DNA from: a phage
NCBI GenBank assembly: GCA_018027755.1
Contig: GCA_018027755.1_4098.1
Length of the DNA stretch: 64,000 nucleotides
Strand: one strand, 5' to 3'
The notes beneath the pieces are model-generated. The model saw nothing but the letters and a program-made list of their open reading frames with translations. It was not told the origin of the DNA and did not search any database. Shown in pieces: positions 4,295-48,030 of this stretch; within the stretch, counting starts at the first letter, position 1; every line of letters starts with the position of its first letter. The translations under genes were made by a program, and so were the position numbers.

Positions 4295-4296
4295 AA

Positions 4297-4330
4297 AAGA
4301 AAAGGAGAGCAATATGCTCTCCTTTTTTAT
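4297..4330. terminator. bidirectional intrinsic terminator between convergent genes
   Basis: 10-bp stem aaggagagca/tgctctcctt (4302-4311/4315-4324), flanked by A-run upstream and T-run downstream. Confidence 0.6.
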
Positions 4331-10300: not shown

Positions 10301-13300
10301 AATTCACCCGTTACCAGAGAATTCTGACTCCAGATCACAAAATCTTTAGCAATAGTGTTCCAATCTTGTTGAGCACCACTATCATTTACATCTTCAAAAA
10401 TCCAGCCATGTTCTTTAAGATATTCACCATAACCACAAATAAAAGTATAAACTTCTTGGTAACTATTAAAAACTTTACCATATTCAATGGAAGCTTCAGA
10501 TTTCCATTCGTTATAATGAACAACATTGCGGTTTTCTAATTTAAGAGTTACTTTTCTACCATTTTTTACGGGAAGTTTATATTTAAATTTAGCACCAACT
10601 AGATCATATCCATCAATCTGATATGCACTACCATTCCAAGTAATTTTGATCGCACTCATTTGCTCATCACGGATATTATTAGAACGAACAAGACCAATGG
10701 TTTGGTTTTCTTGTGAAATAAGACCGAAAGATTTAGCATTGAATGTTAGCTGATCTGCTTTAGTAAAACCACCAATTTTATGACCAACATTTATATAAGA
10801 AGAACGAACTACATCCCCATATTTGGTTGTAATGTTTTTATTTTGATACATCAAATAATCACTAACAAACATTTGATAACCAATTGTTCTTGTGTTATTT
10901 TCACCATGAACTACAGTGTTTTTATCAAAATTAATACGCTTACGTGTATCACCATAAAGGAATTGTGAACCATCAGTGAATACTTCTTTTAAATTGTCAT
11001 TTCGGGTATCCCAAAAATAGTTAGCAAATTGTGCTGGTTTAGCTTTATACAAAAGCATCATTTGGTCATATGCAAACAATGTAGTGTTCATGTATGTAAA
11101 TTCCATGTCACCCATATCACCATATGTCCAAGGTTCTGCTCTATGATTTAAAGATCCAGACACTAAACCTAAAATTTCAGGTGCAATATATTCAACCACA
11201 CAAATATCAATACCAGAAGATGTTTTATTTCCAGTTTTTGTAATTTTGAATGGCTGTACACCAAATCTTTTATATTTGTCATATTGACCACGACGATCAC
11301 CAAATAAAATAGTTCCAGTACTGCTATCTCCGATAGTGCCGTCGATATCCCATAGACCACTAGGAACTAAATCTCCTTGTTCATTCATAACAAGTGCTTC
11401 ATATACATATACCACATCACTATCACGCTCACCAACTTGAACAGCAGTTGGTTCATATTCTTGGTTCCACCAAGTTGGACGCTGTGAAAAGCCAAACATT
11501 TCCCACGGATGTGTTGCAGGGCGATATGTACCATATTGGTCAGTATAAATTGCACGCCATGAACCACGAGCAGGAATTTCAGTACTTTGACCATTAACTA
11601 CATAATAAGTGCCAGTATAGTTCCAAGTTCTCCAATTGTTAGGATCATAATCATGTGTACTATTACTGATACCATTAGTTGCGGTGAAGTTAATGTATCC
11701 ACGTAGTAATAATGTTTGTTTCTCTTCAGCACTATATTCAGTTTTAGTGAAATATGGTGTAGGGAAAAGGTCATCACTATTCAATACTGGTACGTAATCA
11801 ACATCTTTGAATTTATTATCAATACTATTAAAAATTCTATTTTCTAATTCATATACAACATCATCCATTTTATCAACACCATTGATAACACGGTATGCTT
11901 TGGAAATAATACCAGTATGACTGATGTTATAACAGCTTGGTTTACTACCAGCAGTGAGGAATGTCGCTTTTTCTGGTACATATGCTTGAAGAATACCTAA
12001 GAACTGTGGTGTTGGTGGTATAAATGCACGAATGAATCCAGAAGTACTTCCAACATTATCATAATAGAATGGGAATGAACTATCACGTCCCATATTAATA
12101 GTAGTTAAAATTGCATCAACAATGTTTGCAGCACTATTTTGTAAAAAGTCTGATGGATTTTCATCATACATACGAAGCATTTGTGTATTAAATTTATTAA
12201 TGAATCTAAAATATTCAGATTGCATAAACATAGTTGCTTCAAACAAATCAATATCTTCATTTGCAGTATGTGCCATCAATGGAAGCATAGATGCTTCATT
12301 TTGGATAATTTTAGTACCTACGCCATTATTAACCAATCCTTTAGCCAAACGTTCTTCATAGTCATTGAAATCATCAGAAGAACCACGTGTAATGTTCTTT
12401 TGAATAATATCCTGAAAATGTAAAGTGTAGTCACCTTGGTTAATGTATATAATATTAGAATTATATGGGTTATTTTGTAGGTTGATTGGAACTTCATATG
12501 CACCTAATTCTTTATTAGGAGTTACAGTACTGCTATAAGTTCTGATTTGAATAACAGAATCTTCATCCAAATCTACAGTACTATCTAGAGTGATGCTTTG
12601 TACTTGACCTTTTGAAACATTTTTGGTATATTTGGACACATCAACACCATCAACCACAACTTCAATAATATCAGAATCATTATCTAAAACTTTTTGTGCC
12701 AATTCGAATGTATGGTCATATTTTACAATCTGAACACCATCACCAGTAATTGGATGCCAATCTAGATAAGTTTCACGGTCAGCTTTATAGTACTGATATG
12801 TTCTATCAACTTCAATAACATATGCATACATACCATCAACTGGTTCTTTAAAAACTTCCATATCATAAACAGTACTGAATACACGATACATATCAGTACG
12901 TTGGACTTGTGGAGTTTGTTTTACAAATTGTTTAGAGTACTCTTCTGAACGAACCCAATCGGTTTGAAGATTCATTTCATTATTTTCATCAATAATGTTA
13001 TAATAGTATAAACCATCAATTTCAACTTCTTTCCCAAGATGGTCATAGGTATAACGTTGGGATTGTAAAAAGTTTTCATAAATGTAATAATTATAATCAC
13101 CAAGTTCAATGTTATATCCATATACACTATCAGTTGCATAGTTGTAATTTATTTTAAAACCAAACAACTCTGAACCTTTAAAGTTACTTGATGGATATGT
13201 AGTACTGTTGTCAAGTTTGATACCATTACGATCATAAAGTTGGAATTTAGGGAATACGTTAACACTAGTTTTTGATTGTGCACGAACCCACAAAGATCCA

Positions 13301-24994: not shown

Positions 24995-25834
24995 ATGACA
25001 AATAGACCAAAGCGTAAAAAGTATCTCAATAATGCTGATTTACTGCGTGAAATACAAAAAAGTAAAATTTCATATTGCTGGTTATTAGACAAATCATATA
25101 GTATGTATGATTATATTGTTTTTCATGAGTCAGAAATTACTGCTGAGTTACTAGAAAAAGCTAAGGCAGCCCGAATTAAACGACTGAACAATGAAATGCT
25201 TGATAGTATTCGTGAAAAGGAAAATATGAGTGCTAAAAAAGCTAAAGAATATGCAGATGAACACAATTTAGTTATCACTGACGTTCCAATTGATGAAGTT
25301 GTTATTCGTGTTATTACAGATGAACATATTCCACCAGATACTAGAGTTAACTTTGAACCATTCAAGCATTATATTGTAGATAATGAAGGTATTCTCTATG
25401 AAGTTTGTCGTTCTCACTGGAAAGGCGACCTTGAAACTGGTGAATTCAGTACTGTTCATGGTAAAATTACAAATGAACTTGGGAAGATGTTCATTAAACT
25501 TGCAGAGGAAATCTCACACAAATCTAATTACAGAAACTATACATACTTAGATGAAATGATGGGTGATGCAAGAATACAATTAGTTAAAAACGCACTTCTC
25601 TTTAAAGAGAGCATTCTTTATAAAAAAGATAAACCAGCAGTTCAGCTAAATCCTTTCTCTTACTATACATCATTCGTAAACAATAGTTTTCGTTCTATAT
25701 TGAATAGTGAGAAAAATGTTCGAAATATACGTGATGATTTACTTGAAATGCATGGCTTTACGCCATCACATACACGTCAAATTGAAATTGAATTGAACAT
25801 GATTGAAAGGAAAAATGAAGATGGCTCTGTTTGA
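24995..25834 (+). CDS. late-transcription sigma factor, gp55-like (enlarged)
   Basis: N-terminal KYLNNADLLREIQKSK resembles T4 gp55 KYNYVNNKELLQAI; located next to gp47/gp46 as in T4; 279 aa vs 185 aa in T4. Confidence 0.6.
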   Translation: MTNRPKRKKYLNNADLLREIQKSKISYCWLLDKSYSMYDYIVFHESEITAELLEKAKAARIKRLNNEMLDSIREKENMSAKKAKEYADEHNLVITDVPIDEVVIRVITDEHIPPDTRVNFEPFKHYIVDNEGILYEVCRSHWKGDLETGEFSTVHGKITNELGKMFIKLAEEISHKSNYRNYTYLDEMMGDARIQLVKNALLFKESILYKKDKPAVQLNPFSYYTSFVNNSFRSILNSEKNVRNIRDDLLEMHGFTPSHTRQIEIELNMIERKNEDGSV

Positions 25835-26852
25835 TAAAGCAATTACATTCACTGATATTCACTTAGGTTTAAAGAATAACAGCAAGCAACACAATGAAGA
25901 TTGTTTAAACTTCATTAAATTCATGATTGATGTAGCTAAAAAAAATAATATCAAAGTTTGTGTTTTTATGGGAGATTATTTTCATAATAGAAGTAATATC
26001 AATATCCAAACACTAAACTATGGTTTACAAATTCTTCAATTATTAAATGATAATTTTGAAAAAGTATATTTTTTAGTAGGCAACCATGATATGTATCATA
26101 AAAACAAACGTGATATAACAAGTATCAATATGGCTCAAGTTTATGAAAATATAGAATTCATTAATGAAATTACAACATTTGATGATTGTACTTTCATTCC
26201 ATTTATGATTGAAGATGAATATAAGTTGTTACCTCAACTAAAAAGTAAGTATGTTTTTGGTCACTTAGAGTTACCAGGTTACTTGCTTAACAAGATGGTA
26301 GAAATGCCTGATCATGGAAAAGAAACAGAAGGTTCTTTTGGTGGTTGTGAGTATGTTTTTAGTGGGCATTTTCATAAAAGGCAGTCAAAAACAACTTCAA
26401 AAGGAACTCGTGTAGTTTATACTGGTAATTGTTTTCCACATAATTTTTCCGATACATGGGATGATGCAAGAGGTGTGATGATTCTTGAACATGGTAAAGA
26501 ACCTATTTTCAAGTCATGGGATAATGCACCAAAATATAGAACATTCACACTTTCTGAATTGTTGACTGATCCAAGCTATTATCTACAAGATAACACAATA
26601 TCAAAAGTTCAAGTTGATATATCAATAACAACTGATGAGATTAGTTTTATTCGTGATACATTTACTAAACTTTATAACATTAGGGAGTTTAATGTTGTAA
26701 CTAGCAAGCAAAGTATTTCAGAATTAATCGAAGATGGTGTTAGTTTTGAAAGTACTGAATCAGTTGATGAGATAGTTTTACAGCAAATTATGGAAATTGA
26801 TTCACCAATGTTTGATAAAAATCTTCTAATCCAAATTTACAGATCGTTATAA
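25803..26852 (+). CDS. recombination nuclease subunit gp47-like (Mre11/SbcD metallophosphatase)
   Basis: phosphoesterase motifs DIHLG, GDYFH, GNHD, GHLE, GHFH; start may be an internal ATG at 25815 or 25821. Confidence 0.85.
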   Translation: MKGKMKMALFDKAITFTDIHLGLKNNSKQHNEDCLNFIKFMIDVAKKNNIKVCVFMGDYFHNRSNINIQTLNYGLQILQLLNDNFEKVYFLVGNHDMYHKNKRDITSINMAQVYENIEFINEITTFDDCTFIPFMIEDEYKLLPQLKSKYVFGHLELPGYLLNKMVEMPDHGKETEGSFGGCEYVFSGHFHKRQSKTTSKGTRVVYTGNCFPHNFSDTWDDARGVMILEHGKEPIFKSWDNAPKYRTFTLSELLTDPSYYLQDNTISKVQVDISITTDEISFIRDTFTKLYNIREFNVVTSKQSISELIEDGVSFESTESVDEIVLQQIMEIDSPMFDKNLLIQIYRSL

Positions 26853-26860
26853 GGGACTAT

Positions 26861-29008
26861 ATGCTAAACATTACACGTATATCTATGAGGAACTTCTTTT
26901 CATTTGGTAATGCACCACAATCAATTGATTTGAATGGTTCCGACATTTCATTAGTACTGGGTCAAAATAATGATGCAGTTATTGAAGGTGGTGACAGTAC
27001 CGGACGTCGAAATGGTGTAGGGAAAAGTGCTATTATTCAAGGATTAGTTTTTGGATTATTTGGTAAAAGTATTGGTAATGATATTAAAATTCCGAACCTA
27101 GTCAATAAAACTAATGGCAAAAATTGTGAAGTAGTTGTAGAGTTTGAAAAAGATGGTGTACAATATCTGGTTGAACGTGGGAGAAGTCCCACGTATTTCA
27201 ATTTTGTTACTTTAGGGAAAGATAATAAAATTGAAGATGAATCAAGGGGAGAAAAGAAAGACACACAAGAAGATTTGAATGAAATTCTTGGTATATCTCA
27301 ATTATTATTTGAACATATTGTAGTACTGAATGCTAACGTTGAACCTTTCTTAGCTTTATCCACACAAAAACAACGTGATATGATAGAAGAACTTCTTGGA
27401 ATAACACAGTTGACGGAAAAAGCTGAAATGCTAAAGGAGATGTATAAGGATACTAAACGTTTAGCCGAACAAGAAAAGTTCAAAAATGAAACTGTAGCTG
27501 CAAGTAATGAACGTATTCAAAAAAGTATTGAGACACTACAAGAACAGGCAAACCAGTTTGAAATTGATAAAAATAATAGAGTATCTAAGTTAAATGAAGA
27601 GTTGAATATATATAAAACTTTAGACTTTAATGACCTCTATGAAGCTGCTGATATAAAAGAGAAAGCTCTTATTCATAACGCAAAGCGTGGGGAAATCGAA
27701 CGCCGTGTACAAGAGTTGGCTTTAAAATTTGATGCATATGACCGTGAACTTGAAAGATCTAAAAGAGAATTAAATCTAAGCATTGATAAGCTAAAAACTA
27801 TTGATATTAGTGCAGAATTGGAAAATCATAATGAGTTGGAGATATGGAAACAGTTAGAGGGTATTCTAAAAGAGAATAATAACCAAAAACGTTTCAAAGA
27901 ACAAAAACTAAACTCACTAAAAATAGCTTTAAAAGGATATGAATGTTCAATTAATGCTGAAATTGACAAATTATCAACAGTTGAAAACAGCAAATGTCCA
28001 CTTTGTATGTCTGAATTAGAACATAACGAACATACTTCTTCAATTAAAGACAAAATCCAAAGTACTATTAATGATCTTCAAGCTAAAATTGATAGTTCTT
28101 CTTCTGAAATTGAAACATTACTTCAAGAAATTGATAGTATTGAGATTTTTGATATGCCACCTAAGCCTGTGACATATTATAATACACTTTCAGAAGCACA
28201 AATGCATGAACATAAGCTTCAAGAATTGGTCAGAAAGAGTGAAGAAGAACAAATAAACATCTATGCAAATGAACTTATGTCATCATATGATGAACTTAAC
28301 TCATATGAACTAATGGAAGTTCCAGATACATTAAACAAATATGAAGTTAAAGAGTTAGAAATGACTGTAAATTCATTATCACAGCAATTAGATCGTGAAT
28401 TGAAGACTACTAACACATTTATTAGCCAAATTAATACCCTGAAGACTGATTCTTTAGTACCAATCGATTATAGCGACTATAATAATCTTGATAAAATGTC
28501 AAATCACCAAGATTTCTTGGTTAAATTACTTTTAAACAAGGATTCTTATGTCCGTAAACGTATTATTGAGCAAAATATCTCATATTTGAATACACGACTT
28601 CAGTACTATATCGATATGTGCGGTTCTGAGCATAATGTTGTGTTTTTGAATGATTTGAGTGTTGAAATTGAGAAGAGTGGACAGTACTTTGACTATAAAC
28701 AGCTTAGTAGAGGTGAGCGTACAAGGGTAAACATCGCATTATCTTGTGCTTTCCGTGATACATATGAGTCATTATACCAAAGTATTAATATTCTTATCAT
28801 TGATGAGATGATTGACCAAGGTCTTGACTCGAGTGGTGTTCTACGTGTGTGGTCTATCTTCCAAGATATGGCTGCTGTACGTGGTAAGAACGTTTATGCT
28901 ATTTCCCACAGAGAAGAGTTACTATCTAAGACTGAAAAAATCCTCAAAGTTGTTAAAGAGGACGGTTTCAGTACTGTTGAATATGCAACCCTTGACGATG
29001 TTTTCTAA
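26861..29008 (+). CDS. recombination ATPase subunit gp46-like (Rad50/SbcC)
   Basis: N-terminal P-loop GVGKSAI, long coiled coil with CPLC zinc hook, C-terminal signature/Walker B (LSRGERTR, ILIIDE). Confidence 0.85.
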   Translation: MLNITRISMRNFFSFGNAPQSIDLNGSDISLVLGQNNDAVIEGGDSTGRRNGVGKSAIIQGLVFGLFGKSIGNDIKIPNLVNKTNGKNCEVVVEFEKDGVQYLVERGRSPTYFNFVTLGKDNKIEDESRGEKKDTQEDLNEILGISQLLFEHIVVLNANVEPFLALSTQKQRDMIEELLGITQLTEKAEMLKEMYKDTKRLAEQEKFKNETVAASNERIQKSIETLQEQANQFEIDKNNRVSKLNEELNIYKTLDFNDLYEAADIKEKALIHNAKRGEIERRVQELALKFDAYDRELERSKRELNLSIDKLKTIDISAELENHNELEIWKQLEGILKENNNQKRFKEQKLNSLKIALKGYECSINAEIDKLSTVENSKCPLCMSELEHNEHTSSIKDKIQSTINDLQAKIDSSSSEIETLLQEIDSIEIFDMPPKPVTYYNTLSEAQMHEHKLQELVRKSEEEQINIYANELMSSYDELNSYELMEVPDTLNKYEVKELEMTVNSLSQQLDRELKTTNTFISQINTLKTDSLVPIDYSDYNNLDKMSNHQDFLVKLLLNKDSYVRKRIIEQNISYLNTRLQYYIDMCGSEHNVVFLNDLSVEIEKSGQYFDYKQLSRGERTRVNIALSCAFRDTYESLYQSINILIIDEMIDQGLDSSGVLRVWSIFQDMAAVRGKNVYAISHREELLSKTEKILKVVKEDGFSTVEYATLDDVF

Positions 29009-29018
29009 TTAAAGATAA

Positions 29019-29042
29019 AGGGAGCCTTAGCTCCCTTTTTTT
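29019..29042. terminator. intrinsic terminator after gp46-like gene, overlapping the 3' end of the convergent gene
   Basis: agggagc-ctta-gctccct hairpin followed by T7 run. Confidence 0.55.
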
Positions 29043-29518
29043 ATATCAACCATATTTAATTTACCGTCCTTAATCAGCTTTCTAGCTTGCTTTACACGAG
29101 CAGTAGTGTTACTACCAGGGACAACTCCTAACCCTTCCAGAATCGCGTTTTGCTGTGTTGCTGGAAGCCTTTTAAACTTATTAACATCCACAGTTAGTGC
29201 TGTGTGATGTATGACTTGCTCTTCAGGTGGAATGTTATTGTTCTTTTCAAGATAATCTGCCAGATTTCTTAGTACTTCATGAAGAGGTTTATCAGTTAAA
29301 TGGCCCAGACAGCGTTTAAATGAATTTGCGACCCTTCCTTCCCATCCATTCACCTCATTTTGAAGAACCTGTCTACAATGTTGATTTCCACCATGATAGT
29401 GGTCAAGTACTGGTTTAGTTATTTTTATTCCTATAATGGGGTCAATACCATTTTGTTTTTTTAGTAGTTCTTTTCTGTAAGCTGCTGCTTCATTGGGATT
29501 TTTCAATCTCTTTTTCAT
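29027..29518 (-). CDS. endonuclease VII-like (HNH/beta-beta-alpha-Me) junction nuclease, putative
   Basis: 163 aa; D39-H40-x-H42 (LDHYHGG) positionally matches the T4 endo VII D40/H41/H43 active site; only two Cys so zinc site incomplete. Confidence 0.4.
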   Translation of the reverse strand: MKKRLKNPNEAAAYRKELLKKQNGIDPIIGIKITKPVLDHYHGGNQHCRQVLQNEVNGWEGRVANSFKRCLGHLTDKPLHEVLRNLADYLEKNNNIPPEEQVIHHTALTVDVNKFKRLPATQQNAILEGLGVVPGSNTTARVKQARKLIKDGKLNMVDIKKGS

Positions 29519-29563
29519 AGCGTTTTGTCCTGTTTCTGTAAATAATGTATATTAAAAAGTTTT

Positions 29564-30115
29564 GTGAGGTACACAAGAATAGCTAAAATTACACAACAAC
29601 AATTCATAGATAAATCAATGAATATTCATGGTAGTATTTACACATACAATAAAACAATATATGTCAATGCACACCATCCAATAACTGTTACGTGTAACAT
29701 TCACGGTGACTTCACAGTAGTTCCTAATAAACACATTTCTGCAAAACAAGGGTGTCCAGTTTGTTCAGACCAAGAACTAAAATCAAAACCTGTTATTGAA
29801 ATTCAGAATTTTTTAAAAACGTGTGATATAATGTTTGAAATGGAAAAGAAATTTGATAGTTGTAAAAACATCAATCATTTACCATTTGATTTTTATATTC
29901 CTGAACTTAATCTACTAATAGAATATGATGGTATCCAACACTTCAAACCAATAGAATACTTCGGTGGAGAAGAAGGTTTAGCTGAACAACAACGAAATGA
30001 TGAAATTAAGAATAAGTATTGTTATGATAATAATATTACTTTACTTAGAATAAAGTATTCAGATGACCACATTAAAATTATAAAAGACTTCATATCAAAA
30101 AATATAAATTATTGA
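29564..30115 (+). CDS. homing-endonuclease-like protein: zinc-ribbon module fused to a PD-(D/E)xK (Vsr/restriction-endonuclease-like) domain
   Basis: N-terminal module YVNAHHPITVTCNIHGDF...GCPVC matches repeats of the 431-aa protein at 40565; C-terminal FDFYIP-x5-LLIEYDGIQH motif; track start is GTG 29564, ATG at 29618 is more likely. Confidence 0.55.
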   Translation: MRYTRIAKITQQQFIDKSMNIHGSIYTYNKTIYVNAHHPITVTCNIHGDFTVVPNKHISAKQGCPVCSDQELKSKPVIEIQNFLKTCDIMFEMEKKFDSCKNINHLPFDFYIPELNLLIEYDGIQHFKPIEYFGGEEGLAEQQRNDEIKNKYCYDNNITLLRIKYSDDHIKIIKDFISKNINY

Positions 30116-38033: not shown

Positions 38034-39149
38034 ATGTCTAAATTAGAAAAGCTTCTAAAAGAATCATCTCTTTCTGATGAGGCAAAACAGCTAATTCAGG
38101 AAGCATGGAATGAAGAAAAGAACACACTAGCCGCAGAGATGCGTGAAGAAATGAAAGGCCGTTATCAGCAAGATTTGGCTGAACTAACCGAAGGTTTGAA
38201 CACTATGGTTACTCAAGTCATTGCTGAAGAAATGGGTGCTGTATATGAAGAGAAAAAACGTCTTGTTGAAGATCGTGTAACTCTACGTAAAACACTAAGC
38301 AATTTCTCTGCGTTTTCAAACTCTGTTTTGGCTGAAGAAGTTAAACAAATGCGTAAAGAACGTAAGCATCTTCATGAATGCATGGGTAAATTCGTTAATT
38401 TTTCTAACGGTATCCTAGCAGAAGAGCTAAAAGAATTCCACACTGAAAAACGTCAACTAGTTGAAACTCGCGTTAAACTACTTGCTGAAGGTTCACGTCA
38501 AATTGCTGAAGCTCGTAATAACTTCATCAAACGTACATCTGAAAGTGCTGCTAAATATATTGCAGAAACCACTCAGAAGAATCTATATGCGTTGAAACAA
38601 GATCTAGTGGAAGCAAAACAAAATATGTTTGGTCGTAAAATCTTTGAAGCATTTGCTCAAGAGTTTAATGTCAAACAATTTAATGAAAACTCATTGCTAC
38701 GTTCCCTAACTGAATCAATTAAATCTAAAGAAGATGAAATTGCTCAAGTTAAGCAAGAACTACATGAAACTGCTAATGCGGTTAAAGCTGCTAAAACCAA
38801 ACTACGTATTATGGAAGATGCACAAGCACGTAATGCGATTATGTCTGAACTAGTAAAACCACTAACTGCACAGCAAAAACAAATTATGGAATCTCTTCTA
38901 GCTACTTCACCTACTGAAAAGCTTAAAGAAGATTTCAGCAAGTACCATAAGTCAGTACTTAACGGTACTAAAGTAAATGAATCTGCTACCACTCGTCAAG
39001 CAGTTCAGTCTTCCGCTAAGAAAACTCTTGCAGAAGGTAAAGTAATCACTGGCAACCGTCAGGCTATTGTTGAAAGCGAAGAAATGACCGCTGACGATAT
39101 GGCATTCCTAAAAGAACTCGATGTTCTTTCAGGTATCAATAAAAAATAA
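38034..39149 (+). CDS. prohead scaffolding protein, gp22-like
   Basis: 371 aa, Glu/Lys/Ala-rich predicted coiled coil, between protease and major capsid genes. Confidence 0.6.
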   Translation: MSKLEKLLKESSLSDEAKQLIQEAWNEEKNTLAAEMREEMKGRYQQDLAELTEGLNTMVTQVIAEEMGAVYEEKKRLVEDRVTLRKTLSNFSAFSNSVLAEEVKQMRKERKHLHECMGKFVNFSNGILAEELKEFHTEKRQLVETRVKLLAEGSRQIAEARNNFIKRTSESAAKYIAETTQKNLYALKQDLVEAKQNMFGRKIFEAFAQEFNVKQFNENSLLRSLTESIKSKEDEIAQVKQELHETANAVKAAKTKLRIMEDAQARNAIMSELVKPLTAQQKQIMESLLATSPTEKLKEDFSKYHKSVLNGTKVNESATTRQAVQSSAKKTLAEGKVITGNRQAIVESEEMTADDMAFLKELDVLSGINKK

Positions 39150-39240: not shown

Positions 39241-40416
39241 ATGTCACAACTACTAAATGAATCCAAATGGGTAGCAGTAAAAGAGAAACTAGTTGAAGGT
39301 CTACAGGGTACTCGTAAGTCTGTAATGGAAACTGTTCTTGATAACCATCGTAAAGTTATGCTAACTGAATCCGCAACTTCTGGTGCAACTACCGCTGGTA
39401 ACATCGCTACTCTAAACAAAGTGATTCTACCAATTATGCGTCGTGTAATGCCAACCGTTATTGCTAACGAAATCATCGGTGTTCAACCTATGACTGGTCC
39501 AGTTGGTCAGATCCACACCCTACGTGTACAATATGCTGATAACGCACCTGGTGTAATCGCTGGTGAAGAAATGCTTTCTCCATACAAAATCGCTAAATCT
39601 TACTCTGGTGATCTAAATGCGGATAATAGCAACCCACAAGCTGCTCCTACTAGCCAACTAGAAGGTACTATGGGTCGTCGCGTTAACATCCGTATTCTAC
39701 GTGAAACTGTTGAAGCGAAATCTCGTCGTCTATCTGCACGTTGGACTGTTGAATCTGCACAAGATGCTCAATCCCAACATGGTGTTGACGTTGAAGCAGA
39801 ACTAATGGCTGCAATCGCTCAAGAAGTTACTGTAGAAATCGACCAAGAGCTACTAAGCCGTCTACGTGCACTACCTGGTGCTGCTGCTGTAACTTATGAC
39901 CAATCTAAAGTTACTGGTGTTGCAACCTTCGTTGGTGATGAGCACGCTGCTCTAGCTACTCTAATTAACCGTCAAGCAAACGAAGTTGCTCGTCGTACTA
40001 AGCGTGGTGCTGCAAACTGGGCTGTTGTTTCCCCAACTGCACTAACCATTCTACAATCTGCTACTACTTCTAGCTTTGCACGTACCACTGAAGGTACTTT
40101 TGAAGCACCAACTAACGTTAAGTTTGTAGGTACTCTAAACAGCACTATGCGTATTTTCGTTGATACCTATGCTAGTGATGCAGAAGATATTCTAATTGGT
40201 TATAAAGGTAATGCGGAAACTGATGCTGGTGTATTCTATTGCCCATACATCCCACTAATGGCTTCTGGTACTGTAATGGACCCTAACACTGGTGAACTCG
40301 TGACCACATTTTTAACACGCTATGGCTACGTTCAGCTAACCGACAGTACTTCATCTCTTGGTAACGCTGCTGACTACTACAGCAAAATCGCTATCAAAAA
40401 CGTTACTTTCATGTAA
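39241..40416 (+). CDS. major capsid protein, gp23-like
   Basis: VIANEIIGVQPMTGPVGQIHTLRV, VEAKSRRLSARW, ILIGYKGNAETDAGVFYCPY match T4 gp23 LIAFDICGVQPMNSPTGQVFALRA, IEAKSRQLKAAY, GYKGPNEMDAGIYYAPY. Confidence 0.9.
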   Translation: MSQLLNESKWVAVKEKLVEGLQGTRKSVMETVLDNHRKVMLTESATSGATTAGNIATLNKVILPIMRRVMPTVIANEIIGVQPMTGPVGQIHTLRVQYADNAPGVIAGEEMLSPYKIAKSYSGDLNADNSNPQAAPTSQLEGTMGRRVNIRILRETVEAKSRRLSARWTVESAQDAQSQHGVDVEAELMAAIAQEVTVEIDQELLSRLRALPGAAAVTYDQSKVTGVATFVGDEHAALATLINRQANEVARRTKRGAANWAVVSPTALTILQSATTSSFARTTEGTFEAPTNVKFVGTLNSTMRIFVDTYASDAEDILIGYKGNAETDAGVFYCPYIPLMASGTVMDPNTGELVTTFLTRYGYVQLTDSTSSLGNAADYYSKIAIKNVTFM

Positions 40417-40460
40417 TTATAAACGATTTAAAAGATTTAATCAAGAATATAAAAACAATA

Positions 40461-40490
40461 GGGACTCTTCGGAGTCCCTTTTCTTTTGTG
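40461..40490 (+). terminator. intrinsic terminator after major capsid gene
   Basis: gggactc-ttcg-gagtccc hairpin followed by T-rich run. Confidence 0.65.
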
Positions 40491-40502
40491 TTAAAAAAAT
40501 GC

Positions 40503-40531
40503 TTGACAGAATATTTTTAATTATATATAAT
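40503..40531 (+). promoter_or_regulatory. consensus sigma70 promoter (TTGACA-17 nt-TATAAT)
   Basis: TTGACA 40503-40508, 17-nt spacer, TATAAT 40526-40531, directly upstream of homing-endonuclease-like ORF. Confidence 0.55.
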
Positions 40532-40564
40532 TATCAAATCGAAACCAAGTTGAGTAAATTGAAA

Positions 40565-41653
40565 ATGTTAATTGAAAATTTCAAAAAGAAAATGAATGAA
40601 AAATATGGAATGTATGGTGAGTTTGATTTTAATTCGATGATTTTTAAATCTAGCAAAACTACCTTGAAATGTAACAAATGTGGTATTGAAAATACAAAGT
40701 CTGCAATTCGTCATATCTCATGTACTTGCTCTAACTGTTATAGTAACATGTCCCAGCGTTCCAATAATGATGATTTCATTTTAAAAGTTGAAAAGAAATT
40801 CGGGACTGAAAAATTTAAATTTGATAAATTGGTTTATGTTAATGCAAAAACTCCAGTTACAATATTCTGCACTAAACATAATGGTTATTTTCACATAACA
40901 CCAAATAAGTTATTAACTGGTGCTGGATGTAACGTTTGTAATATTAATGTAGTGCATACGAATAATGAATTTATAAAAATTGTTAAACGTAATTATGGTG
41001 ATAAATTTAGTTTCCAAAAAACCAACTATATTAACAGAACAACAAAAGTCACAGTGCATTGCAATGAAGGAAATCATGATTGGGAAGTTGATCCAAAAAC
41101 ATTGATACTTGGGAAGTCAGGATGTGGTATATGTTCAGGTAAAGGTGGGAGAACAACCGAGCAATTTATTGCAGAAGCTGTAAAAGTTCATAACAATAAT
41201 TATGATTACTCATCTGTTATGTATGAGCATAGTGAAAAAATGGTCGAGATAAAATGCAACAATTGTAAAAATATTTTTCATCAGCAACCTAAAGCACATT
41301 TGACAGGTCGTGGTTGTCCAAAATGCGGTAAGTATGGTTATCAGACTTCCAAGCCTGGATATTTTTATGTACAGAAACTAACTAATAAAGATAAAACCGT
41401 TTATAAATATGGAATCACTGGTGATATGAAACGTAGAGTGAACGAACAGAGTCGTGATTCTGAATTCGTCCATGAAGTACTAGTAGAACGTTTCTTCGAA
41501 GATGGTAATAAACCCCTCTTACTGGAAAAGTTTATCAAGCAGTACATTGAAAGTGGAGTAGTAAGTACTGAAGAGTTGCCGTCAGGATTTACTGAAACGT
41601 TTGATGAAAAGTATCTAAAATCTGTACTGGAAATTGTAAATACCTTTAAGTAA
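40565..41653 (+). CDS. free-standing homing-endonuclease-like protein: four tandem zinc-ribbon modules plus C-terminal GIY-YIG superfamily (T5orf172-like) domain
   Basis: track ORF 40358..41653 overlaps capsid gene and terminator, so start placed at ATG 40565; repeated ~40-aa Cys modules ending G(C)xxC; C-terminal GYFYVQKL-x9-YKYGITGDMKRR resembles GIY...YIG...R. Confidence 0.55.
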   Translation: MLIENFKKKMNEKYGMYGEFDFNSMIFKSSKTTLKCNKCGIENTKSAIRHISCTCSNCYSNMSQRSNNDDFILKVEKKFGTEKFKFDKLVYVNAKTPVTIFCTKHNGYFHITPNKLLTGAGCNVCNINVVHTNNEFIKIVKRNYGDKFSFQKTNYINRTTKVTVHCNEGNHDWEVDPKTLILGKSGCGICSGKGGRTTEQFIAEAVKVHNNNYDYSSVMYEHSEKMVEIKCNNCKNIFHQQPKAHLTGRGCPKCGKYGYQTSKPGYFYVQKLTNKDKTVYKYGITGDMKRRVNEQSRDSEFVHEVLVERFFEDGNKPLLLEKFIKQYIESGVVSTEELPSGFTETFDEKYLKSVLEIVNTFK

Positions 41654-41667
41654 ACAATCTAAAGGAG

Positions 41668-42027
41668 TTGACACGGATGTTAACTGTATACAAATTTAAA
41701 AGAGAAGAGTACTTAAAGAGCCAGTACTCAAATATAGAAATAAATGTTCCTTATGGTACGTTAGTTGGATACGATGAAGCCACTGAAACATTGTATTATA
41801 ATGATGATAGATTAGATTATAGTTTAGATTCTTTCATAGAAGATATACTTAATACACATACTGAAGATATGTTGTATGAAGAATACATCGATCATTATAG
41901 AGAACGTATGTCGCTGCTGCATTCTGATGCTCCTGTGCTAAACATTGCACAAGAACCCTCGGAATTTCAGCCACATAATCCTTTTCAACGTTTAATTGAT
42001 ATTGGTTTAAAATTCACTATTAATTGA
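41668..42027 (+). CDS. hypothetical protein (119 aa)
   Basis: ORF with GGAG RBS downstream of homing endonuclease gene. Confidence 0.45.
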   Translation: MTRMLTVYKFKREEYLKSQYSNIEINVPYGTLVGYDEATETLYYNDDRLDYSLDSFIEDILNTHTEDMLYEEYIDHYRERMSLLHSDAPVLNIAQEPSEFQPHNPFQRLIDIGLKFTIN

Positions 42028-42066
42028 TAGATAAATATCTCCATATTAATGATGGAGATTGAATCT

Positions 42067-42375
42067 ATGTCACAGATATGTTATGTTATAATAAACTCTG
42101 CATGGCCTGACTATGTTAAGATTGGTTTCACTTCTAAATCTGAAATGACAGAGCGTTTGAGAACGTATCAGACAGCTACCCCGTTTCGTGATTTTGAAGT
42201 TTATCATGAAGTTCACTTTGAAGACGCACGTTTAGCTGAAAAAGAGATACATAAAAGGCTTAAACAAATGAATGCAACTAGACAACCAAACACGGAGTGG
42301 TTTAAAATGTCTAAAAAGATAGCAGCAAACATCATTGATTCTGTGTGGGATGATATGGATAACGACTTGCTATAG
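42067..42375 (+). CDS. small GIY-YIG superfamily (T5orf172-like) domain protein
   Basis: track ORF starts 42049; CYVIINS-x7-VKIGFT...R...EWF pattern; no DNA-binding extension. Confidence 0.45.
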   Translation: MSQICYVIINSAWPDYVKIGFTSKSEMTERLRTYQTATPFRDFEVYHEVHFEDARLAEKEIHKRLKQMNATRQPNTEWFKMSKKIAANIIDSVWDDMDNDLL

Positions 42376-42415
42376 GAATAAATATAGTATATATTAATCA
42401 TAAAGGGATTTATAC

Positions 42416-44026
42416 ATGAGCATAAGTTTTAATAACCCATTGGATACAATGACCAGTACTGGTGCTAATGGATCTTTAGAACTAATAGTGCTTGGTGGTA
42501 CACCAACTAACCCAAGACCTATTCGTTTTAATTCGTCATCAGTTATTATACCAGTACAAACTTTACCTACTGGTGAACAAGGTGCAATGGTTTTTGATCG
42601 AAGCGAATTAGTTTTGAAGTATCATAACGGTACAAGTTGGGTTGCAGTATATGATACTGATACTATTTTGGAACCAATTAGAATTTCATTAGATGAAGTA
42701 AACCGAAAATTAAATTTAAAAGTAGAAAGTGTAACATACAGTAGTAGTACTGTTCCTAGTGCAAGTATTAGTGGAACAACCTTAAACATTGTATTCCCTA
42801 CTGCTTCTAGTGGTGGTTCTGGTCCAACTGGTCTTTACACTTCACTTAAACCTGGTGCTATTACACAATATTCATTGACTTCTGGTCAATCTGTTGCTAG
42901 TATACGTGAACAAATGTCAGGACAATCGAATGGACAAAGTGGGAGAAACGGTTCACAAGGTGCTCCGTGGAAAACGTCTGACGGTTGGTGTTTTGCTGAT
43001 GGTATGTGGTGGCAATGGGAGGGGGAAAATGGTACAATTACTAAACAAGTACCAAACCTTAACCAAAAAGCGTACTTAAAAGGTATATCTACATCTGGTG
43101 TAACTAAAACTGATAGTGTTATTGGTAGTAGCGGTAATATTAGCGGCACAGTATTAAGTGTTGCCCAATTACCATCACACTCATTTAGTTTTAGTGGGAC
43201 CACAGGGGCTGCTGGTCGTCATGGTCATAGTCAAGCACTAAAAGGTATGGACCGTAGTGGTCTAAATGCGATAACTTCAAGTAATGATAACGGTATACCA
43301 ACTGTAATCAATAACATTAACGAAGCACCAGACCACATTCACTCATTTAGTGGAAACACTAACACACTTGGTGGAAACCAACCACACTATCATGGTATTA
43401 GTAACATTGATGTGGAACACTTTAACGTTGCATATCTATATAACATTGCTGAATCTAACGTTGCATTGAGTGAAAAAGTTGCAAACACTCGTTATGTACT
43501 AAAAACTGGTGATACAATGACTGGTTCATTGACTATTGCAAACAGTGCGTCAATTAAGTCAAATGATACATCATTAGTTCTATATTTCCGTAACGCAAGC
43601 GGTGGTGAGCGTGCGGCAGTGTATCATAACTCTTCAAATAATACATTGAGATTGCGTTCCGGTGGAGCAGAAGTTACTGTAAACTCTTCTGGTACTTTAG
43701 CTGCTCCATCATTAACTGTTTCTAACAACTCAGCTACTGTTGGTGGTAAAAATATTGTTCGTTCAATTAACGGTACTGCTGCTGATGCTAGTGGCAACGT
43801 TACTTTGCAAATTAGTACTAATAACGTACAAAGTATTCGTTTGAGTGCACGTATTGAAACACGTAAAATACCTGATTCTTCATGGACATATACACCAGAA
43901 GGTGCATTTATGGATGGCGTATGGATTTCTGTTAATGGTAGTTCAGGCACTCACTTAGAACGAATTAGTTATCGCTATGTTCAAATGCAAATAAATGGTA
44001 ACTGGGAAACAGTACGTCAACAATAA
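42416..44026 (+). CDS. tail fiber / receptor-binding protein (putative)
   Basis: 536 aa; Ser/Thr/Gly/Asn-rich; repeated HSFSFSG...HGH and HIHSFSG...HYH His-x-His motifs as in phage fiber tips; followed by chaperone-like gene. Confidence 0.5.
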   Translation: MSISFNNPLDTMTSTGANGSLELIVLGGTPTNPRPIRFNSSSVIIPVQTLPTGEQGAMVFDRSELVLKYHNGTSWVAVYDTDTILEPIRISLDEVNRKLNLKVESVTYSSSTVPSASISGTTLNIVFPTASSGGSGPTGLYTSLKPGAITQYSLTSGQSVASIREQMSGQSNGQSGRNGSQGAPWKTSDGWCFADGMWWQWEGENGTITKQVPNLNQKAYLKGISTSGVTKTDSVIGSSGNISGTVLSVAQLPSHSFSFSGTTGAAGRHGHSQALKGMDRSGLNAITSSNDNGIPTVINNINEAPDHIHSFSGNTNTLGGNQPHYHGISNIDVEHFNVAYLYNIAESNVALSEKVANTRYVLKTGDTMTGSLTIANSASIKSNDTSLVLYFRNASGGERAAVYHNSSNNTLRLRSGGAEVTVNSSGTLAAPSLTVSNNSATVGGKNIVRSINGTAADASGNVTLQISTNNVQSIRLSARIETRKIPDSSWTYTPEGAFMDGVWISVNGSSGTHLERISYRYVQMQINGNWETVRQQ

Positions 44027-45024: not shown

Positions 45025-48000
45025 ATGTATATCGATGCTTATATGGAACGTAAACGTACTGGTGATATTCTTCATGTAGTTGAACGTAAGAATGGTAAAC
45101 GTATTCTACGCGAATTAGAACCAGTATATGAATATTATGTTGAATCCCCACAAGGAACACATAAAACTGTTTATGGTACAATGGCTAAACATTTTGAGTT
45201 TCAAACTCAAGCTCAAATGAATAAAAGTGTAGAGCAACACAAAAGTGAAGGTCTACGTATTTTTGAAAGTGATTGTAACATTACATTTAAAACATTAGCT
45301 AAAGAATATATGGGAAAAGGTTCACCCGATTTGAACATCGTGTTCTTCGATATCGAGACTGATTTCCATAAGAAATTTGGTTATGCTCCACCATCAGACC
45401 CGTTTAACCGAGTAACCGCTATTTCTCTATATCAATCATGGACTGGAAAGGATTATGTACTTACTTTACCACCTGCTGATATGGAAATTTATGAAGCACA
45501 AGATATTGTTCGCCAACTAAATGAAGAAACAAACGATCCTAACAGTACTGTAATTTTATATACAGACGAAAAGGAAATGTTTATGGAATTCTTTAGTTTA
45601 ATTGATGATTCTGATGTTATTTCAGGATGGAATAGTGAATTCTTTGATATTCCATATATGATCAATCGAACTAAAAAAATCTTCAATGAAGCAACAACTG
45701 CTCGTTGGTGTTTATGGAATAAAAAACCAAATTCACGTGAAGCAGACAACTTTGGTAAAACTGTTCAAACATATGATCTGGTAGGTCGCGTCCATCTTGA
45801 TTATTTGGCTTTGTATAAGAAACATGCTGGTCAAGTTGAACAATCTTATAAACTAGATTATATTGCTGAAAAAGTAACTAAAGAAAATAAAGTATCATAT
45901 GAAGGTTCATTGGATAAACTTTACAGAGAGGATTACATTACTTTCTTGCGTTATTCTAAACAGGATAGTATTCTTCTTAAAAAGATTGATGCTAAATGTG
46001 ACTATATCAACCTACACAATCGACTTGCACACAAAGAATGTGTACTTATCAGTACAACAATGGGTTCAGTAGCACTAATCGACACTGCTATTATCAACTT
46101 AGCACATACTCGTGGTGAAGTTGTTTTCAACAAAGCACCGAAAGATGATCTTGAGTTTGATCCAGAAATGGAATATTATGGTGAAGATGGTGAAGATGAA
46201 GATGAGAAAATTAGTGCAAAAGCAGCAGGTGCATGGGTACAAGATCCAGTACTAGGACTTGTAAGTGACCTTGGGTGTACTGACTTTAACTCTCTTTACC
46301 CTACTGTTCTACGTACTTTGGGTATGAGTACTGAATGTATTCTTGGTCAATTACGTCAAGATTACACCGATGCGTATCTTGCAGCTAAAATCCAAGAACA
46401 GAAGAACAAATCTAAATCTAAATCATTTGAACCAGATTGGACTGCGGCATGGCATGGTTTATTTGCTGCTGTTGAATTTACAATGGTTCATGAAAAGTCA
46501 GAAGAAACATTGATTGTTGATTTAGAAGATGGGAGTTCTTTTAAAGCAACGGGCAAAGAGCTATATGATATTATTTTTGCAGAAGATAGTACTATTGTAC
46601 TTAGTGCAAACGGAACACTTTTTGATAAGTCTAAGTCTGGTGTAATTCCTGACATTCTAACTCAATGGTATTCTGAACGTAAAGCACAGCAAAAAATGGT
46701 CATTGACTACAAACATATGTATACTGATGGTTGGGAGTTTAATGGCTATGAAAAAGTCGAACCACTACTATCAAACTATACCCCTGGTACAATGTTTAGA
46801 ACTAATATTCATGATAATGATCCTGTATACTTACTTCGTAAAGAAATTGGTAAAGGACAGTGGGATGAAGTTGCTAAGTTGATTGTAGAAAACGGATTAG
46901 TACTAAAAGATGGTCGTATTTTCTGTCCTAAAGAAGAAAAAGATTACTTCAAACAACGTAGTGCTTTCTGGAAACAGAACCAACAGATTCGTAAGATTCT
47001 TCTAAACAGTCTATATGGTGCACTATTGAACAAAGGTTCTCGTTTTTTTGACAAACGTTTAGGTCAATCCGTAACATTAACTGGACGTTCTATGACCAAA
47101 CATATGGCAAGTCGTATCAATGAAATTACTACTGGTGTATATAACCACCAAGGTGGTTCAGTAATTTATGGTGATACTGACTCAGTTTACTTTAGTGTAA
47201 CTCATTATCTGAAAGAACAAGGTATTCCATATAATCTATCTAAAGAAGAGATTGTTGATATGTATATTAAAATTGGTGAAGAAGTTGGTGAATCTTTCCC
47301 ATCATTTATGCATGAGATGTTCAACACTGGTATTGAAAAAGGTAAGATTGTTGGTGCAGACCTTGAGATGGTTGGTTCGCGTGGCCTATTCTTGAAGAAA
47401 AAACGTTATGCAATTCTGAAGTACTGGGAAGATGGGTTCCGTAAAGATATTGATGGTAAACCAGGTGAAATCAAAGCGATGGGTCTTGAAATTAAACGCT
47501 CAGATACGCCAAAATACATCCAGAACTTCCTAGAAGAGACTCTAATCGCATTACTGGTAGGTGAGAGTGAACAACAGCTAAAACAGCGTGTACGTGAGTT
47601 TAAGGACGTATTTAAGGATATGCCTGTACATGAAAAAGGTTCACCAAAAACTGTAAAAAACTACACTAATTTAGAGGCTGAATATCAGCTAACTGGTAAG
47701 TGTAAAGTTGGTCACGTTCTTGCTGGTATCCAATGGAACCGTCTACGTGAAGTTTATGATGATAAATCTGTTCCAGAAGTAACAGATGGAACAAAAGTAA
47801 TTGTCTGTAACTTAAAAGATAATCCTATGGGAATTAAAGCAGTTGGTTATCCAATTGACTGTGTTGAGTATCTTCCAGAATGGTTCTTGGAACTACCATT
47901 TGATACTGAAAAAATGGAAGAGATTGTTCTAACTAAAAAATTAGAGAATATTTTTGGTATTTTGGATATGGATATTGGTATTCATGAAAAAAGTACTGCG

Positions 48001-48030
48001 TCAGTAAACAATGGATTCTTCACTTGGTAA
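45025..48030 (+). CDS. DNA polymerase, family B, gp43-like
   Basis: exo motif FFDIETD; pol motifs DFNSLYPT, KILLNSLYGALLN, YGDTDSVYF in canonical order in one ORF. Confidence 0.9.
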   Translation: MYIDAYMERKRTGDILHVVERKNGKRILRELEPVYEYYVESPQGTHKTVYGTMAKHFEFQTQAQMNKSVEQHKSEGLRIFESDCNITFKTLAKEYMGKGSPDLNIVFFDIETDFHKKFGYAPPSDPFNRVTAISLYQSWTGKDYVLTLPPADMEIYEAQDIVRQLNEETNDPNSTVILYTDEKEMFMEFFSLIDDSDVISGWNSEFFDIPYMINRTKKIFNEATTARWCLWNKKPNSREADNFGKTVQTYDLVGRVHLDYLALYKKHAGQVEQSYKLDYIAEKVTKENKVSYEGSLDKLYREDYITFLRYSKQDSILLKKIDAKCDYINLHNRLAHKECVLISTTMGSVALIDTAIINLAHTRGEVVFNKAPKDDLEFDPEMEYYGEDGEDEDEKISAKAAGAWVQDPVLGLVSDLGCTDFNSLYPTVLRTLGMSTECILGQLRQDYTDAYLAAKIQEQKNKSKSKSFEPDWTAAWHGLFAAVEFTMVHEKSEETLIVDLEDGSSFKATGKELYDIIFAEDSTIVLSANGTLFDKSKSGVIPDILTQWYSERKAQQKMVIDYKHMYTDGWEFNGYEKVEPLLSNYTPGTMFRTNIHDNDPVYLLRKEIGKGQWDEVAKLIVENGLVLKDGRIFCPKEEKDYFKQRSAFWKQNQQIRKILLNSLYGALLNKGSRFFDKRLGQSVTLTGRSMTKHMASRINEITTGVYNHQGGSVIYGDTDSVYFSVTHYLKEQGIPYNLSKEEIVDMYIKIGEEVGESFPSFMHEMFNTGIEKGKIVGADLEMVGSRGLFLKKKRYAILKYWEDGFRKDIDGKPGEIKAMGLEIKRSDTPKYIQNFLEETLIALLVGESEQQLKQRVREFKDVFKDMPVHEKGSPKTVKNYTNLEAEYQLTGKCKVGHVLAGIQWNRLREVYDDKSVPEVTDGTKVIVCNLKDNPMGIKAVGYPIDCVEYLPEWFLELPFDTEKMEEIVLTKKLENIFGILDMDIGIHEKSTASVNNGFFTW

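Follow-up and report, generated by a model that had tools for sequence, protein, structure and literature searches.

The T5orf172 domain (PF10544) is common to the homing endonucleases of ICP1-, T5- and Plateaulake-like phages, to Odn, and to ORF B, the small phage protein analysed here. That the domain acts as a DNA endonuclease is proven by Odn, whose activity requires a Glu residue that aligns to E58 of ORF B: the E180A mutant of ICP1 Odn (Gp88) loses cleavage (PMC8263062). The homing endonucleases and Odn also share with ORF B a Tyr, a KIG motif, an Arg, the catalytic Glu and an ExF motif, and a location beside capsid genes. However, these other proteins carry CapR, DUF723, DUF4379 zinc-finger or RepA_N DNA-binding modules and are distributed sporadically, whereas ORF B is the domain alone, fixed and vertically inherited across genera.

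Other GIY-YIG proteins resemble ORF B in different respects. The catalytic domain of I-TevI (PDB 1MK0/1LN0) is, like ORF B, a GIY-YIG fold of some 95 residues, and the control of I-TevI expression matches the arrangement of late box and hairpin at ORF B, where control is inferred from sequence. I-TevI differs in having a linker and a DNA-binding domain, in being intron encoded, and in its sequence profile, which has no detectable similarity to that of ORF B (hhalign probability 0.2%). The structure-specific GIY-YIG nucleases Slx1 and HIGLE are 14-15% identical to ORF B, and Slx1 has an extra RING/PHD domain; both are partner-dependent junction or flap nucleases. Bacterial UPF0213/YhbQ (PDB 1ZG2 and 1YWL) and T4 endonuclease II (DenA), at about 100-136 aa, consist of a GIY-YIG domain only, as ORF B does, which demonstrates that such a domain needs no fused DNA-binding module to function. 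UPF0213 structures are among the fold matches of ORF B, but UPF0213/YhbQ and DenA belong to other subfamilies. T4 endonuclease II is, moreover, an early enzyme that degrades host DNA, whereas ORF B carries late-type signals.

A survey of jumbo phages found a T5orf172 protein termed "Uri endonuclease" (QAY00453.1 or APU01437.1) to be conserved in group 2.2 (Iyer et al. 2021, PMC7824862). It very probably represents the same gene family as ORF B. The survey suggested a role in recombination, or as an alternative junction resolvase, for this conserved protein, and it does not include a regulatory or synteny analysis of it (PMC7824862).

Two small genes between an endonuclease and a tail-fibre gene

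The window, by which we mean the whole 64-kb stretch of DNA that was analysed, derives from a jumbo phage of the Asteriusvirus (121Q/PBECO4-like) type, a group with genomes of about 350 kb. A megablast search of phage genomes with positions 40400-42500 returned 37 records, every one of them a 121Q/PBECO4-type jumbo phage of Escherichia or Salmonella. The features that concern us are the following:

29027..29518, minus strand, endonuclease VII-like gene (phrog_423, E 7e-32), product 60% identical to CBB_248, which is annotated "DNA endonuclease VII"
38034-39149, scaffold gene
39241-40416, major capsid gene
40460..40479, plus strand, intrinsic terminator hairpin 3' of the major capsid gene, followed by a T-run (terminator scan: 8 pairs, 5 of them G-C)
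40503..40531, plus strand, sigma-70 consensus promoter TTGACA-17-TATAAT (12/12 match)
40565..41653, plus strand, free-standing gene for a 362-aa endonuclease (phrog_681, E 2.6e-73; DUF4379 and CapR zinc-finger matches)
41677..42027, plus strand, ORF A, 116 aa (phrog_15724)
42030..42037, plus strand, late-promoter-like GATAAATA box of T4 type, overlapping the end of A
42037..42059, plus strand, RNA hairpin ATCTCCAT-attaatg-ATGGAGAT, the 3' arm of which holds the Shine-Dalgarno sequence of ORF B (GGAG, 42053-42056)
42067..42375, plus strand, ORF B, 102 aa, a stand-alone T5orf172 domain (Pfam; phrog_15085)
42377..42384, plus strand, late-promoter-like AATAAATA box 5' of the tail-fibre gene
42416..44026, plus strand, tail-fibre gene (phrog_13229, E 1e-272), the downstream edge of the locus
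between the tail-fibre and DNA polymerase genes, a tail-fibre assembly protein gene and then a small protein gene
45025-48030, DNA polymerase gene

Gene order is the same in the RefSeq genomes of 121Q, PBECO4 and vB_Ec-M-J. RefSeq labels A "hypothetical protein" and B either "GIY-YIG nuclease family protein" or "homing endonuclease", and GenBank and UniRef already hold the exact protein sequences of both.

An earlier note on this DNA had reported two small ORFs between the endonuclease and tail-fibre genes. Both are present, on the plus strand, and both are real genes, as their dN/dS values and GenBank copies attest. Their lengths need slight revision. The upstream ORF exists, but the 119 aa counted from a TTG at 41668 are too many: an AGGAG lies 9 nt upstream of the ATG at 41677 and all orthologues begin MLTVY, so this ATG is most likely the start and the product has 116 aa. 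The span of ORF B, 42067-42375, stands; it encodes 102 aa plus a stop codon rather than 103 aa. A and B are small, real and already catalogued genes, long retained by the giant E. coli phages of the 121Q/PBECO4 group.

The upstream endonuclease is the mobile gene of the locus

The neighbour of the pair combines zinc-finger repeats of the DUF4379/CapR kind with a weak C-terminal T5orf172 match, an architecture described for T5orf172 homing endonucleases (PMC10448857). The earlier description of a full homing endonuclease next to ORF B is apt, the neighbour being of T5orf172 type. Its gene is absent from PBECO4, where just ~50 bp separate the capsid terminator from the ribosome-binding site of A; its counterpart in 121Q shares 70% identity with it and that in RaK2 37%. 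In GAP32, a 77-aa C-terminal piece, GAP32_251, is kept, and this is the true decayed endonuclease remnant at the locus. The 362-aa endonuclease thus shows the sporadic presence/absence pattern of homing genes.

The capsid terminator hairpin is found in PBECO4 as well. The sigma-70 promoter that sits right after it in the window is absent from PBECO4, which has no cassette, and on this pattern we assign the promoter to the inserted endonuclease cassette. We conclude that the variable, mobile element of the locus is the 362-aa endonuclease and not the A/B pair.

ORF B is predicted to be an intact minimal nuclease domain

Pfam T5orf172 matches residues 4-91 of ORF B over profile positions 2-98 of 101 (3.1e-13; 50.5 bits, cut-off 20), and MUG113 (PF13455) matches at 8e-13 and 49.2 bits. 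Similarity to GIY-YIG profiles, which the earlier note had allowed might prove undetectable, is thus well above the cut-off. ORF B is also a full-length member of phrog_15085; NCBIfam gave no match for it, for A or for the 362-aa endonuclease. Because the domain spans residues 4-91 of 102, there is no room for a DNA-binding domain, and the view of ORF B as a stand-alone GIY-YIG/T5orf172 core without a DNA-binding extension is borne out: the Pfam domain covers the protein end to end.

Orthologues of ORF B fall into 32 clusters at 90% identity, all of them 100-108 aa long and at least 63% identical to ORF B. In an alignment of 33 orthologues, Y6, R30, E58 and N88 are invariant. The full set of invariant positions is Q3-I-C-Y6, V17-K18, G20, T22, R30, Y34, P39-F-R-D42, H47, A57-E58, E60, E77-W78 and N88, and an acidic C-terminal tail, DDxENDLL, is almost invariant. 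Where canonical YIG motifs have their second Tyr, ORF B has a Lys (Lys18), as does the whole T5orf172 family. The protein is mildly acidic (pI 5.9).

An AlphaFold2 model of ORF B (pLDDT 85.8) has the order strand-strand-helix-strand-helix-strand-helix, which is that of GIY-YIG domains, and the predicted fold is the GIY-YIG alpha/beta arrangement of a three-stranded sheet flanked by helices. Searching with this model, Foldseek ranked Slx1 and UPF0213 first, weakly (E 0.4); Slx1 and HIGLE are the best fold matches, at the 14-15% identity noted above. A sequence search of the PDB with ORF B gave no significant match.

Odn is the sole biochemically proven T5orf172 nuclease retrieved for alignment with ORF B. 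In a MAFFT alignment that is of low identity and anchored on motifs, Odn E180 aligns on E58, and the Y, K-I/V-G, R and E-x-F motifs match up. E77 had been considered as the catalytic Glu and was dropped for E58 after this alignment. A residue mapping onto I-TevI, the catalytic-domain sequence of which was checked against 1MK0, was likewise dropped, given the hhalign probability of 0.2%. Since the I-TevI comparison was empty, the equivalence of ORF B to canonical GIY-YIG enzymes rests on the Pfam clan, the fold and the Odn alignment. We conclude that ORF B is a minimal T5orf172/GIY-YIG nuclease domain, predicted from its conserved residues to be catalytically intact.

Perhaps ORF B is instead a noncatalytic DNA- or protein-binding factor built on a GIY-YIG scaffold, such as a cofactor in late regulation or in assembly? 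The original description of T5orf172 was as a DNA-binding domain, and the UniRef name of the exact protein is [quoted passage not shown]. The Lys in place of the second YIG Tyr, the mild acidity of the protein and the location of its gene among head and tail genes are all compatible with such a role. However, Tyr6, Arg30, Glu58 and Asn88 are invariant, the Glu equivalent to Glu58 is essential for cleavage by Odn, and the tight translational masking described below is easier to explain for an active nuclease. We therefore regard a noncatalytic ORF B as very unlikely.

ORF B is vertically inherited

The slot of ORF B, between A and the tail-fibre gene, is kept in Asteriusvirus (121Q, PBECO4, vB_Ec-M-J and EJP2), in Munch-like Salmonella phages, in Mimasvirus (GAP32, CBB and XbC2) and in Eneladusvirus (pEa_SNUABM_12). 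We found no presence/absence polymorphism of ORF B in the 37 Asteriusvirus-like records, nor in Mimasvirus or Eneladusvirus. Only the syntenic slot of RaK2, K64-1 and other Alcyoneusvirus records differs, being occupied by a 244-aa gene, ORF097. RaK2 ORF097 is unrelated to ORF B by hhalign and has no Pfam or PHROG match. RaK2-like phages thus manage without ORF B at this position.

Between genera, ORF B is 68-69% identical, close to the scaffold protein (69-71%); the capsid protein is more conserved (90%), and the tail fibre (50%) and A (~30%) are less so. Its dN/dS is 0.03 against 121Q, 0.04 against vB_Ec-M-J and 0.10 against EJP2. Over 36 genome pairs, which are not independent of one another, the identity of ORF B and that of the capsid protein are correlated with a Spearman coefficient of 0.95. 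A clear gap separates orthologues of ORF B (at least 63% identity) from other relatives (at most 47%), and IMG/VR repeats it, with 14 orthologous loci at 67-79% identity and the next relatives at no more than 47%. We conclude that ORF B is vertically inherited in the same slot across at least three genera; its pattern with the capsid protein is that expected of co-descent. The earlier note had entertained the prospect that these ORFs are conserved core genes of known function in relatives; of this, conservation is confirmed, and the genes are syntenic there as well.

These data bear on the suggestion in the same note that ORF B is a decayed endonuclease copy. That a protein consisting only of the nuclease core adjoins a full-length endonuclease of the same superfamily does invite the idea of a truncated remnant in decay. 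However, BLASTP found no significant similarity between ORF B and the 362-aa endonuclease, its C-terminal domain included (E=1), and for this reason we reject ORF B as a duplicate or decayed copy of its neighbour. The ORF is intact, at 100-108 aa, in 32/32 clusters and in 14 IMG/VR loci. Its motif residues are invariant in the 33 orthologues, its dN/dS of 0.03-0.10 indicates strong purifying selection, an identity of 68-69% has been held across genera, and it appears to have its own conserved promoter and Shine-Dalgarno hairpin. Decay is refuted by these conservation data, and we give it almost no credence.

From what kind of protein might ORF B descend? Its closest non-orthologues are mostly 163-214 aa long. 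Ahead of the nuclease domain these carry an RMYVNGKY module and, at the N terminus, a CxxC...CxxC finger, and they share the AWPEWVKIG, YQTSSPFRDY and GEWFK motifs of ORF B. A few non-orthologous relatives stand alone, at 105-136 aa. Relatives at ~40% identity carry a zinc-finger extension of 80-100 aa that ORF B lacks. Because its nearest non-orthologues have the zinc-finger module and it does not, ORF B looks as if it descends from a small protein of homing-endonuclease-like type and has been domesticated. It would be a member of this subfamily that is fingerless, through loss or from the outset, and has become a fixed gene.

Alternatively, ORF B might still be a selfish, free-standing homing endonuclease that has become fixed here, with target recognition provided in trans by A or by another phage protein. 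T5orf172 proteins are the dominant homing endonucleases of ICP1- and T5-like phages and cluster beside capsid genes (PMC10448857), and the neighbourhood is a homing hot spot, as the variable endonuclease upstream and the GAP32 remnant indicate. The closest relatives of ORF B have the zinc-finger plus T5orf172 architecture, and a late promoter with a hairpin that masks the Shine-Dalgarno sequence is classic control for T4 homing genes. Held against the traits of homing genes, however, ORF B has no joined DNA-binding module, no sporadic distribution (there being no polymorphism in the 37 Asteriusvirus-like records, Mimasvirus or Eneladusvirus) and no divergence incongruent with that of the capsid protein. 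Its dN/dS of 0.03-0.10, kept up across genera, is atypical of the cycle of invasion and decay that homing genes undergo. In addition, A evolves much faster than ORF B and exists without it. Hence, we consider it unlikely that ORF B is still selfish.

ORF A is clade restricted and persists without ORF B

ORF A is a full-length member of phrog_15724 (E 2e-56), a family without an assigned function, and it has no match in Pfam, NCBIfam, PADLOC or the PDB. The protein is strongly acidic (pI 4.4, net charge -13). In the model, an SH3-like beta-barrel at the N terminus, accompanied by helices, is followed by a disordered, low-confidence linker and then by a C-terminal segment that is conserved. The protein has homologues in 71 phage records that span all Rak2-like genera, RaK2 among them, at 28-47% identity, and a profile search of 1.84 billion representative proteins placed the family in 22 clusters at 50% identity, with lengths of 118-171 aa. 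ORF A is clade restricted. Within the genus its dN/dS of 0.03-0.09 indicates purifying selection, and between genera it diverges rapidly.

At the loci examined, ORF B is always accompanied by A. However, A occurs without B at the syntenic slot of RaK2 and K64-1, and since it persists in RaK2 in this way it cannot be an obligate partner of B.

Could A and B nonetheless form a pair, whether nuclease and inhibitor, toxin-antitoxin-like or anti-defence, in which the acidic A serves B as inhibitor or chaperone, or counters a host system by DNA mimicry? The earlier note had offered a small toxin-like or anti-defence pair as one possibility. The genes are adjacent wherever B occurs; A is acidic and fast evolving (28-38% identity between genera, against 67-82% for B), traits typical of inhibitors and arms-race proteins; and translation of B appears to be tightly restrained. 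However, A is kept in RaK2 and K64-1, where the unrelated 244-aa gene replaces B, and among 1.84 billion representative proteins there are neither A-B fusions nor any other fusions of A. PADLOC, as noted above, does not recognize A, which has no match in defence libraries, and it matches B to PDC-S57 and PD-Lambda-1 only over their shared T5orf172 domain. These observations weigh against a toxin-like or anti-defence pair, and we think it improbable that A and B function as a dedicated pair of any of these kinds.

A conserved late-promoter-like box and a hairpin precede ORF B

T4 late transcripts start ~6 nt after TATAAATA. In T4, I-TevI, e, soc and gene 49 each have a late promoter together with a hairpin that hides the ribosome-binding site in read-through transcripts. 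In the window, TATAAATA precedes both the scaffold gene and the capsid gene. Counted over both strands, nATAAATA occurs just 20 times in the 64 kb, compared with 28 per strand expected from base composition, and ~15/20 of the copies lie no more than 90 nt upstream of a gene start. A prediction of late promoters in CBB and GAP32, which encode a gp55-like sigma factor, gave this ATAAATA consensus too (PMC5259590).

In all 14 unique orthologous A-B intergenic regions, TAAATA is invariant and a hairpin follows directly. In the window this hairpin (42037-42059) has a folding energy of -13.7 kcal/mol (z -3.4). Its position is the same in every lineage and its stem sequence varies:

GAP32, CCCCACT/AGAGGGG
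EJP2, TCCCAGAGTAC/GTACTATGGGA
Munch, ACTTCC/GGAGGT
one metagenomic phage, ATAACTCACC/GGAGAGTTAT

Part of this apparent covariation of the stem is imposed, since one of the two arms doubles as the Shine-Dalgarno sequence. In MAFFT alignments the 3' arms fall into different registers by lineage, and we therefore used per-sequence folds and no single consensus structure. Across eight genomes, the pairing probability of the Shine-Dalgarno sequence is 0.74-1.0 for B, compared with 0.09-0.48 for the tail-fibre gene and 0.12-0.76 for A. The RaK2 slot, with its different gene, has neither box nor hairpin. A crude control of Shine-Dalgarno masking within the window ranked B 3-4 of 38 genes, which is strong and not unique; the comparison of leaders across genomes (major capsid protein, A and tail-fibre genes) is more informative than this control. 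The same geometry of late box and hairpin is thus present in the 14 regions with different stem sequences, and the in-genome control is not unique to B.

The conserved anatomy suggests that ORF B has its own ATAAATA late promoter, with the anti-Shine-Dalgarno arm sitting in the few bases between the box and the expected start of transcription. A start ~6 nt past the box would fall at or beyond the 5' arm of the hairpin. In read-through RNA, including any that starts at the sigma-70 promoter of the endonuclease, the hairpin would form and so hide the ribosome-binding site of B, whereas transcripts from the late box would be without the 5' arm and B would be translated from them. The outcome would be that a potentially harmful nuclease is confined to late infection, as are the products of the four T4 genes named above. 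ORF B is probably made late in infection only. The conserved cassette of putative late promoter and hairpin, present in every lineage with ORF B, is the sole new detail here, and the kind of control it represents was already known.

ORFs A and B are missing from virion proteomes

The virion proteome of phAPEC6, determined by ESI-MS/MS, comprises 62 proteins and lists gp225c (capsid), gp226c, gp227c and gp228c (PMC7247149). The products of B (gp222c), A (gp223c) and the endonuclease gene (gp224c) are missing from the phAPEC6 virion table (PMC7247149), though mass spectrometry can miss small proteins. CBB_258 and CBB_259, the CBB orthologues of the pair, do not bear the label "structural protein" that is used in CBB for proteins detected by mass spectrometry.

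DISCUSSION

On balance, we think it somewhat probable that the Rak2-like jumbo phages have in A and B two nonvirion genes that are functional, separate from each other and passed on vertically. We grade the four rival readings weighed above lower than this one, decay being refuted outright.

What might the two proteins do? ORF B is a mildly acidic protein without a DNA-binding module, and its C-terminal tail, acidic and hydrophobic, is conserved. From these properties we think, speculatively, that it probably works on DNA only when a partner recruits it. A is a possible, though by no means certain, candidate for this partner. Equally speculatively, ORF B could serve as an auxiliary nuclease, structure specific or nonspecific, in late DNA recombination or in the processing of concatemers. 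Such a role would be in keeping with the one suggested in the jumbo-phage survey, but a resolvase role for ORF B is not required, since the phage already has, in its endonuclease VII-like gene (29027-29518), a candidate junction resolvase.

The fullest version of this scheme would make ORF B a domesticated, partner-dependent late nuclease. Its DDxENDLL tail would dock on a replication, recombination or packaging protein, and it would trim branched or damaged concatemers as a second debranching enzyme, of GIY-YIG type, beside endonuclease VII. The acidic, SH3-like A would be its stoichiometric inhibitor or chaperone. We offer this scheme as a long shot, and it is distinctly unlikely to be right in all its parts.

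A and B had been annotated before, and the 2021 jumbo-phage survey (PMC7824862) very probably describes the family of B. The consequences of this analysis beyond annotation are small. It does correct a misreading that lies close at hand: a nuclease reduced to its domain need not be a wreck because it sits beside a homing endonuclease. It also pins down the mobile gene at the locus, which is the upstream 362-aa endonuclease with its own putative sigma-70 promoter, and it offers a model, open to test, of how a conserved nuclease of jumbo phages may be regulated. Were ORF B to prove a homing domain domesticated for core late DNA processing, it would represent the exaptation of selfish nucleases in giant phages.

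Endonuclease genes at the locus

The 362-aa endonuclease encoded between the major capsid gene and A (the 116-aa acidic protein) combines zinc-finger repeats with a T5orf172 domain. Its insertion point lies directly 3' of the capsid-gene terminator, and the stretch from that terminator on comprises the following:

40460-41653, endonuclease cassette (promoter plus 362-aa gene), from the capsid-gene terminator on
40503-40531, perfect sigma-70 promoter belonging to the cassette

PBECO4 lacks this gene, while the 121Q and RaK2 versions are 70% and 37% identical. The 362-aa endonuclease is a mobile cassette carrying its own sigma-70 promoter.

The earlier note had raised the possibility that B, the stand-alone T5orf172 protein, is a decayed endonuclease copy. 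The real "decayed endonuclease" of this locus is found in GAP32:

GAP32 locus 3683-3916, GAP32_251, 77 aa, flanked by the capsid gene and A

GAP32_251 matches positions 486 to 538 of phrog_681 (E 9e-11); it is the C-terminal remnant of a decayed endonuclease from the family of the 362-aa protein.

Elsewhere in the window, a second mobile nuclease insertion is likely at 29027-30115, where a nuclease pair adjoins Mre11/Rad50-like genes. The list also includes a single ORF spanning 4330-14331:

29027-29518, minus, endonuclease VII-like gene (phrog_423)
29564-30115, plus, adjoining homing-endonuclease-like ORF (phrog_559, E 1e-50; phrog_9084; DUF723 finger)
25803-29008, Mre11/Rad50-like genes
4330-14331, minus, 3333-aa ORF

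Start, probable promoter and slot of B

Some annotations begin B at an upstream in-frame ATG at 42049 (MMEIES..., 42049-42066), giving 107- to 108-aa versions. This ATG falls within the loop and 3' arm of the hairpin preceding B. Because it is not kept in other genera, 42067 is the better start.

The box nATAAATA is under-represented in the window, with 20 copies on both strands versus 28 per strand expected from composition. Copies cluster no more than 90 nt upstream of gene starts:

32090, 36087, 37319, 37979, 39188, 42030, 42377, 49314, 55984, plus, example copies
52007, 32041, 24906, 18867, 17908, 14345, minus, example copies

A hairpin lies directly 3' of several (37979, 36087 and 49314). 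Judged from sequence, this distribution is consistent with a T4-type late promoter.

Another gene stands in place of B in RaK2:

RaK2 locus 4404-5138, ORF097, 244 aa

The late box and hairpin are missing upstream of it, and a TGnTATAAT-like box takes their place. Searches of Pfam and PHROG with ORF097 gave no match. This is a lineage-specific gene replacement.

In the phAPEC6 record (locus 3518-5102), only the 50-aa gp221c follows B, and the tail-fibre gene is not annotated. This points to a gap in the annotation, or to a disruption or frameshift in the phAPEC6 genome.

Environmental relatives of B

A large environmental subfamily of 163- to 214-aa proteins (IMG/VR contigs L027-L092) is encoded on mostly short phage contigs. 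In these proteins, a CxxC...CxxC finger and an RMYVNGKY(I/V)xxxHPL module are fused with a T5orf172 domain that shares about 40% identity with B. Members of this subfamily look like very small homing endonucleases.
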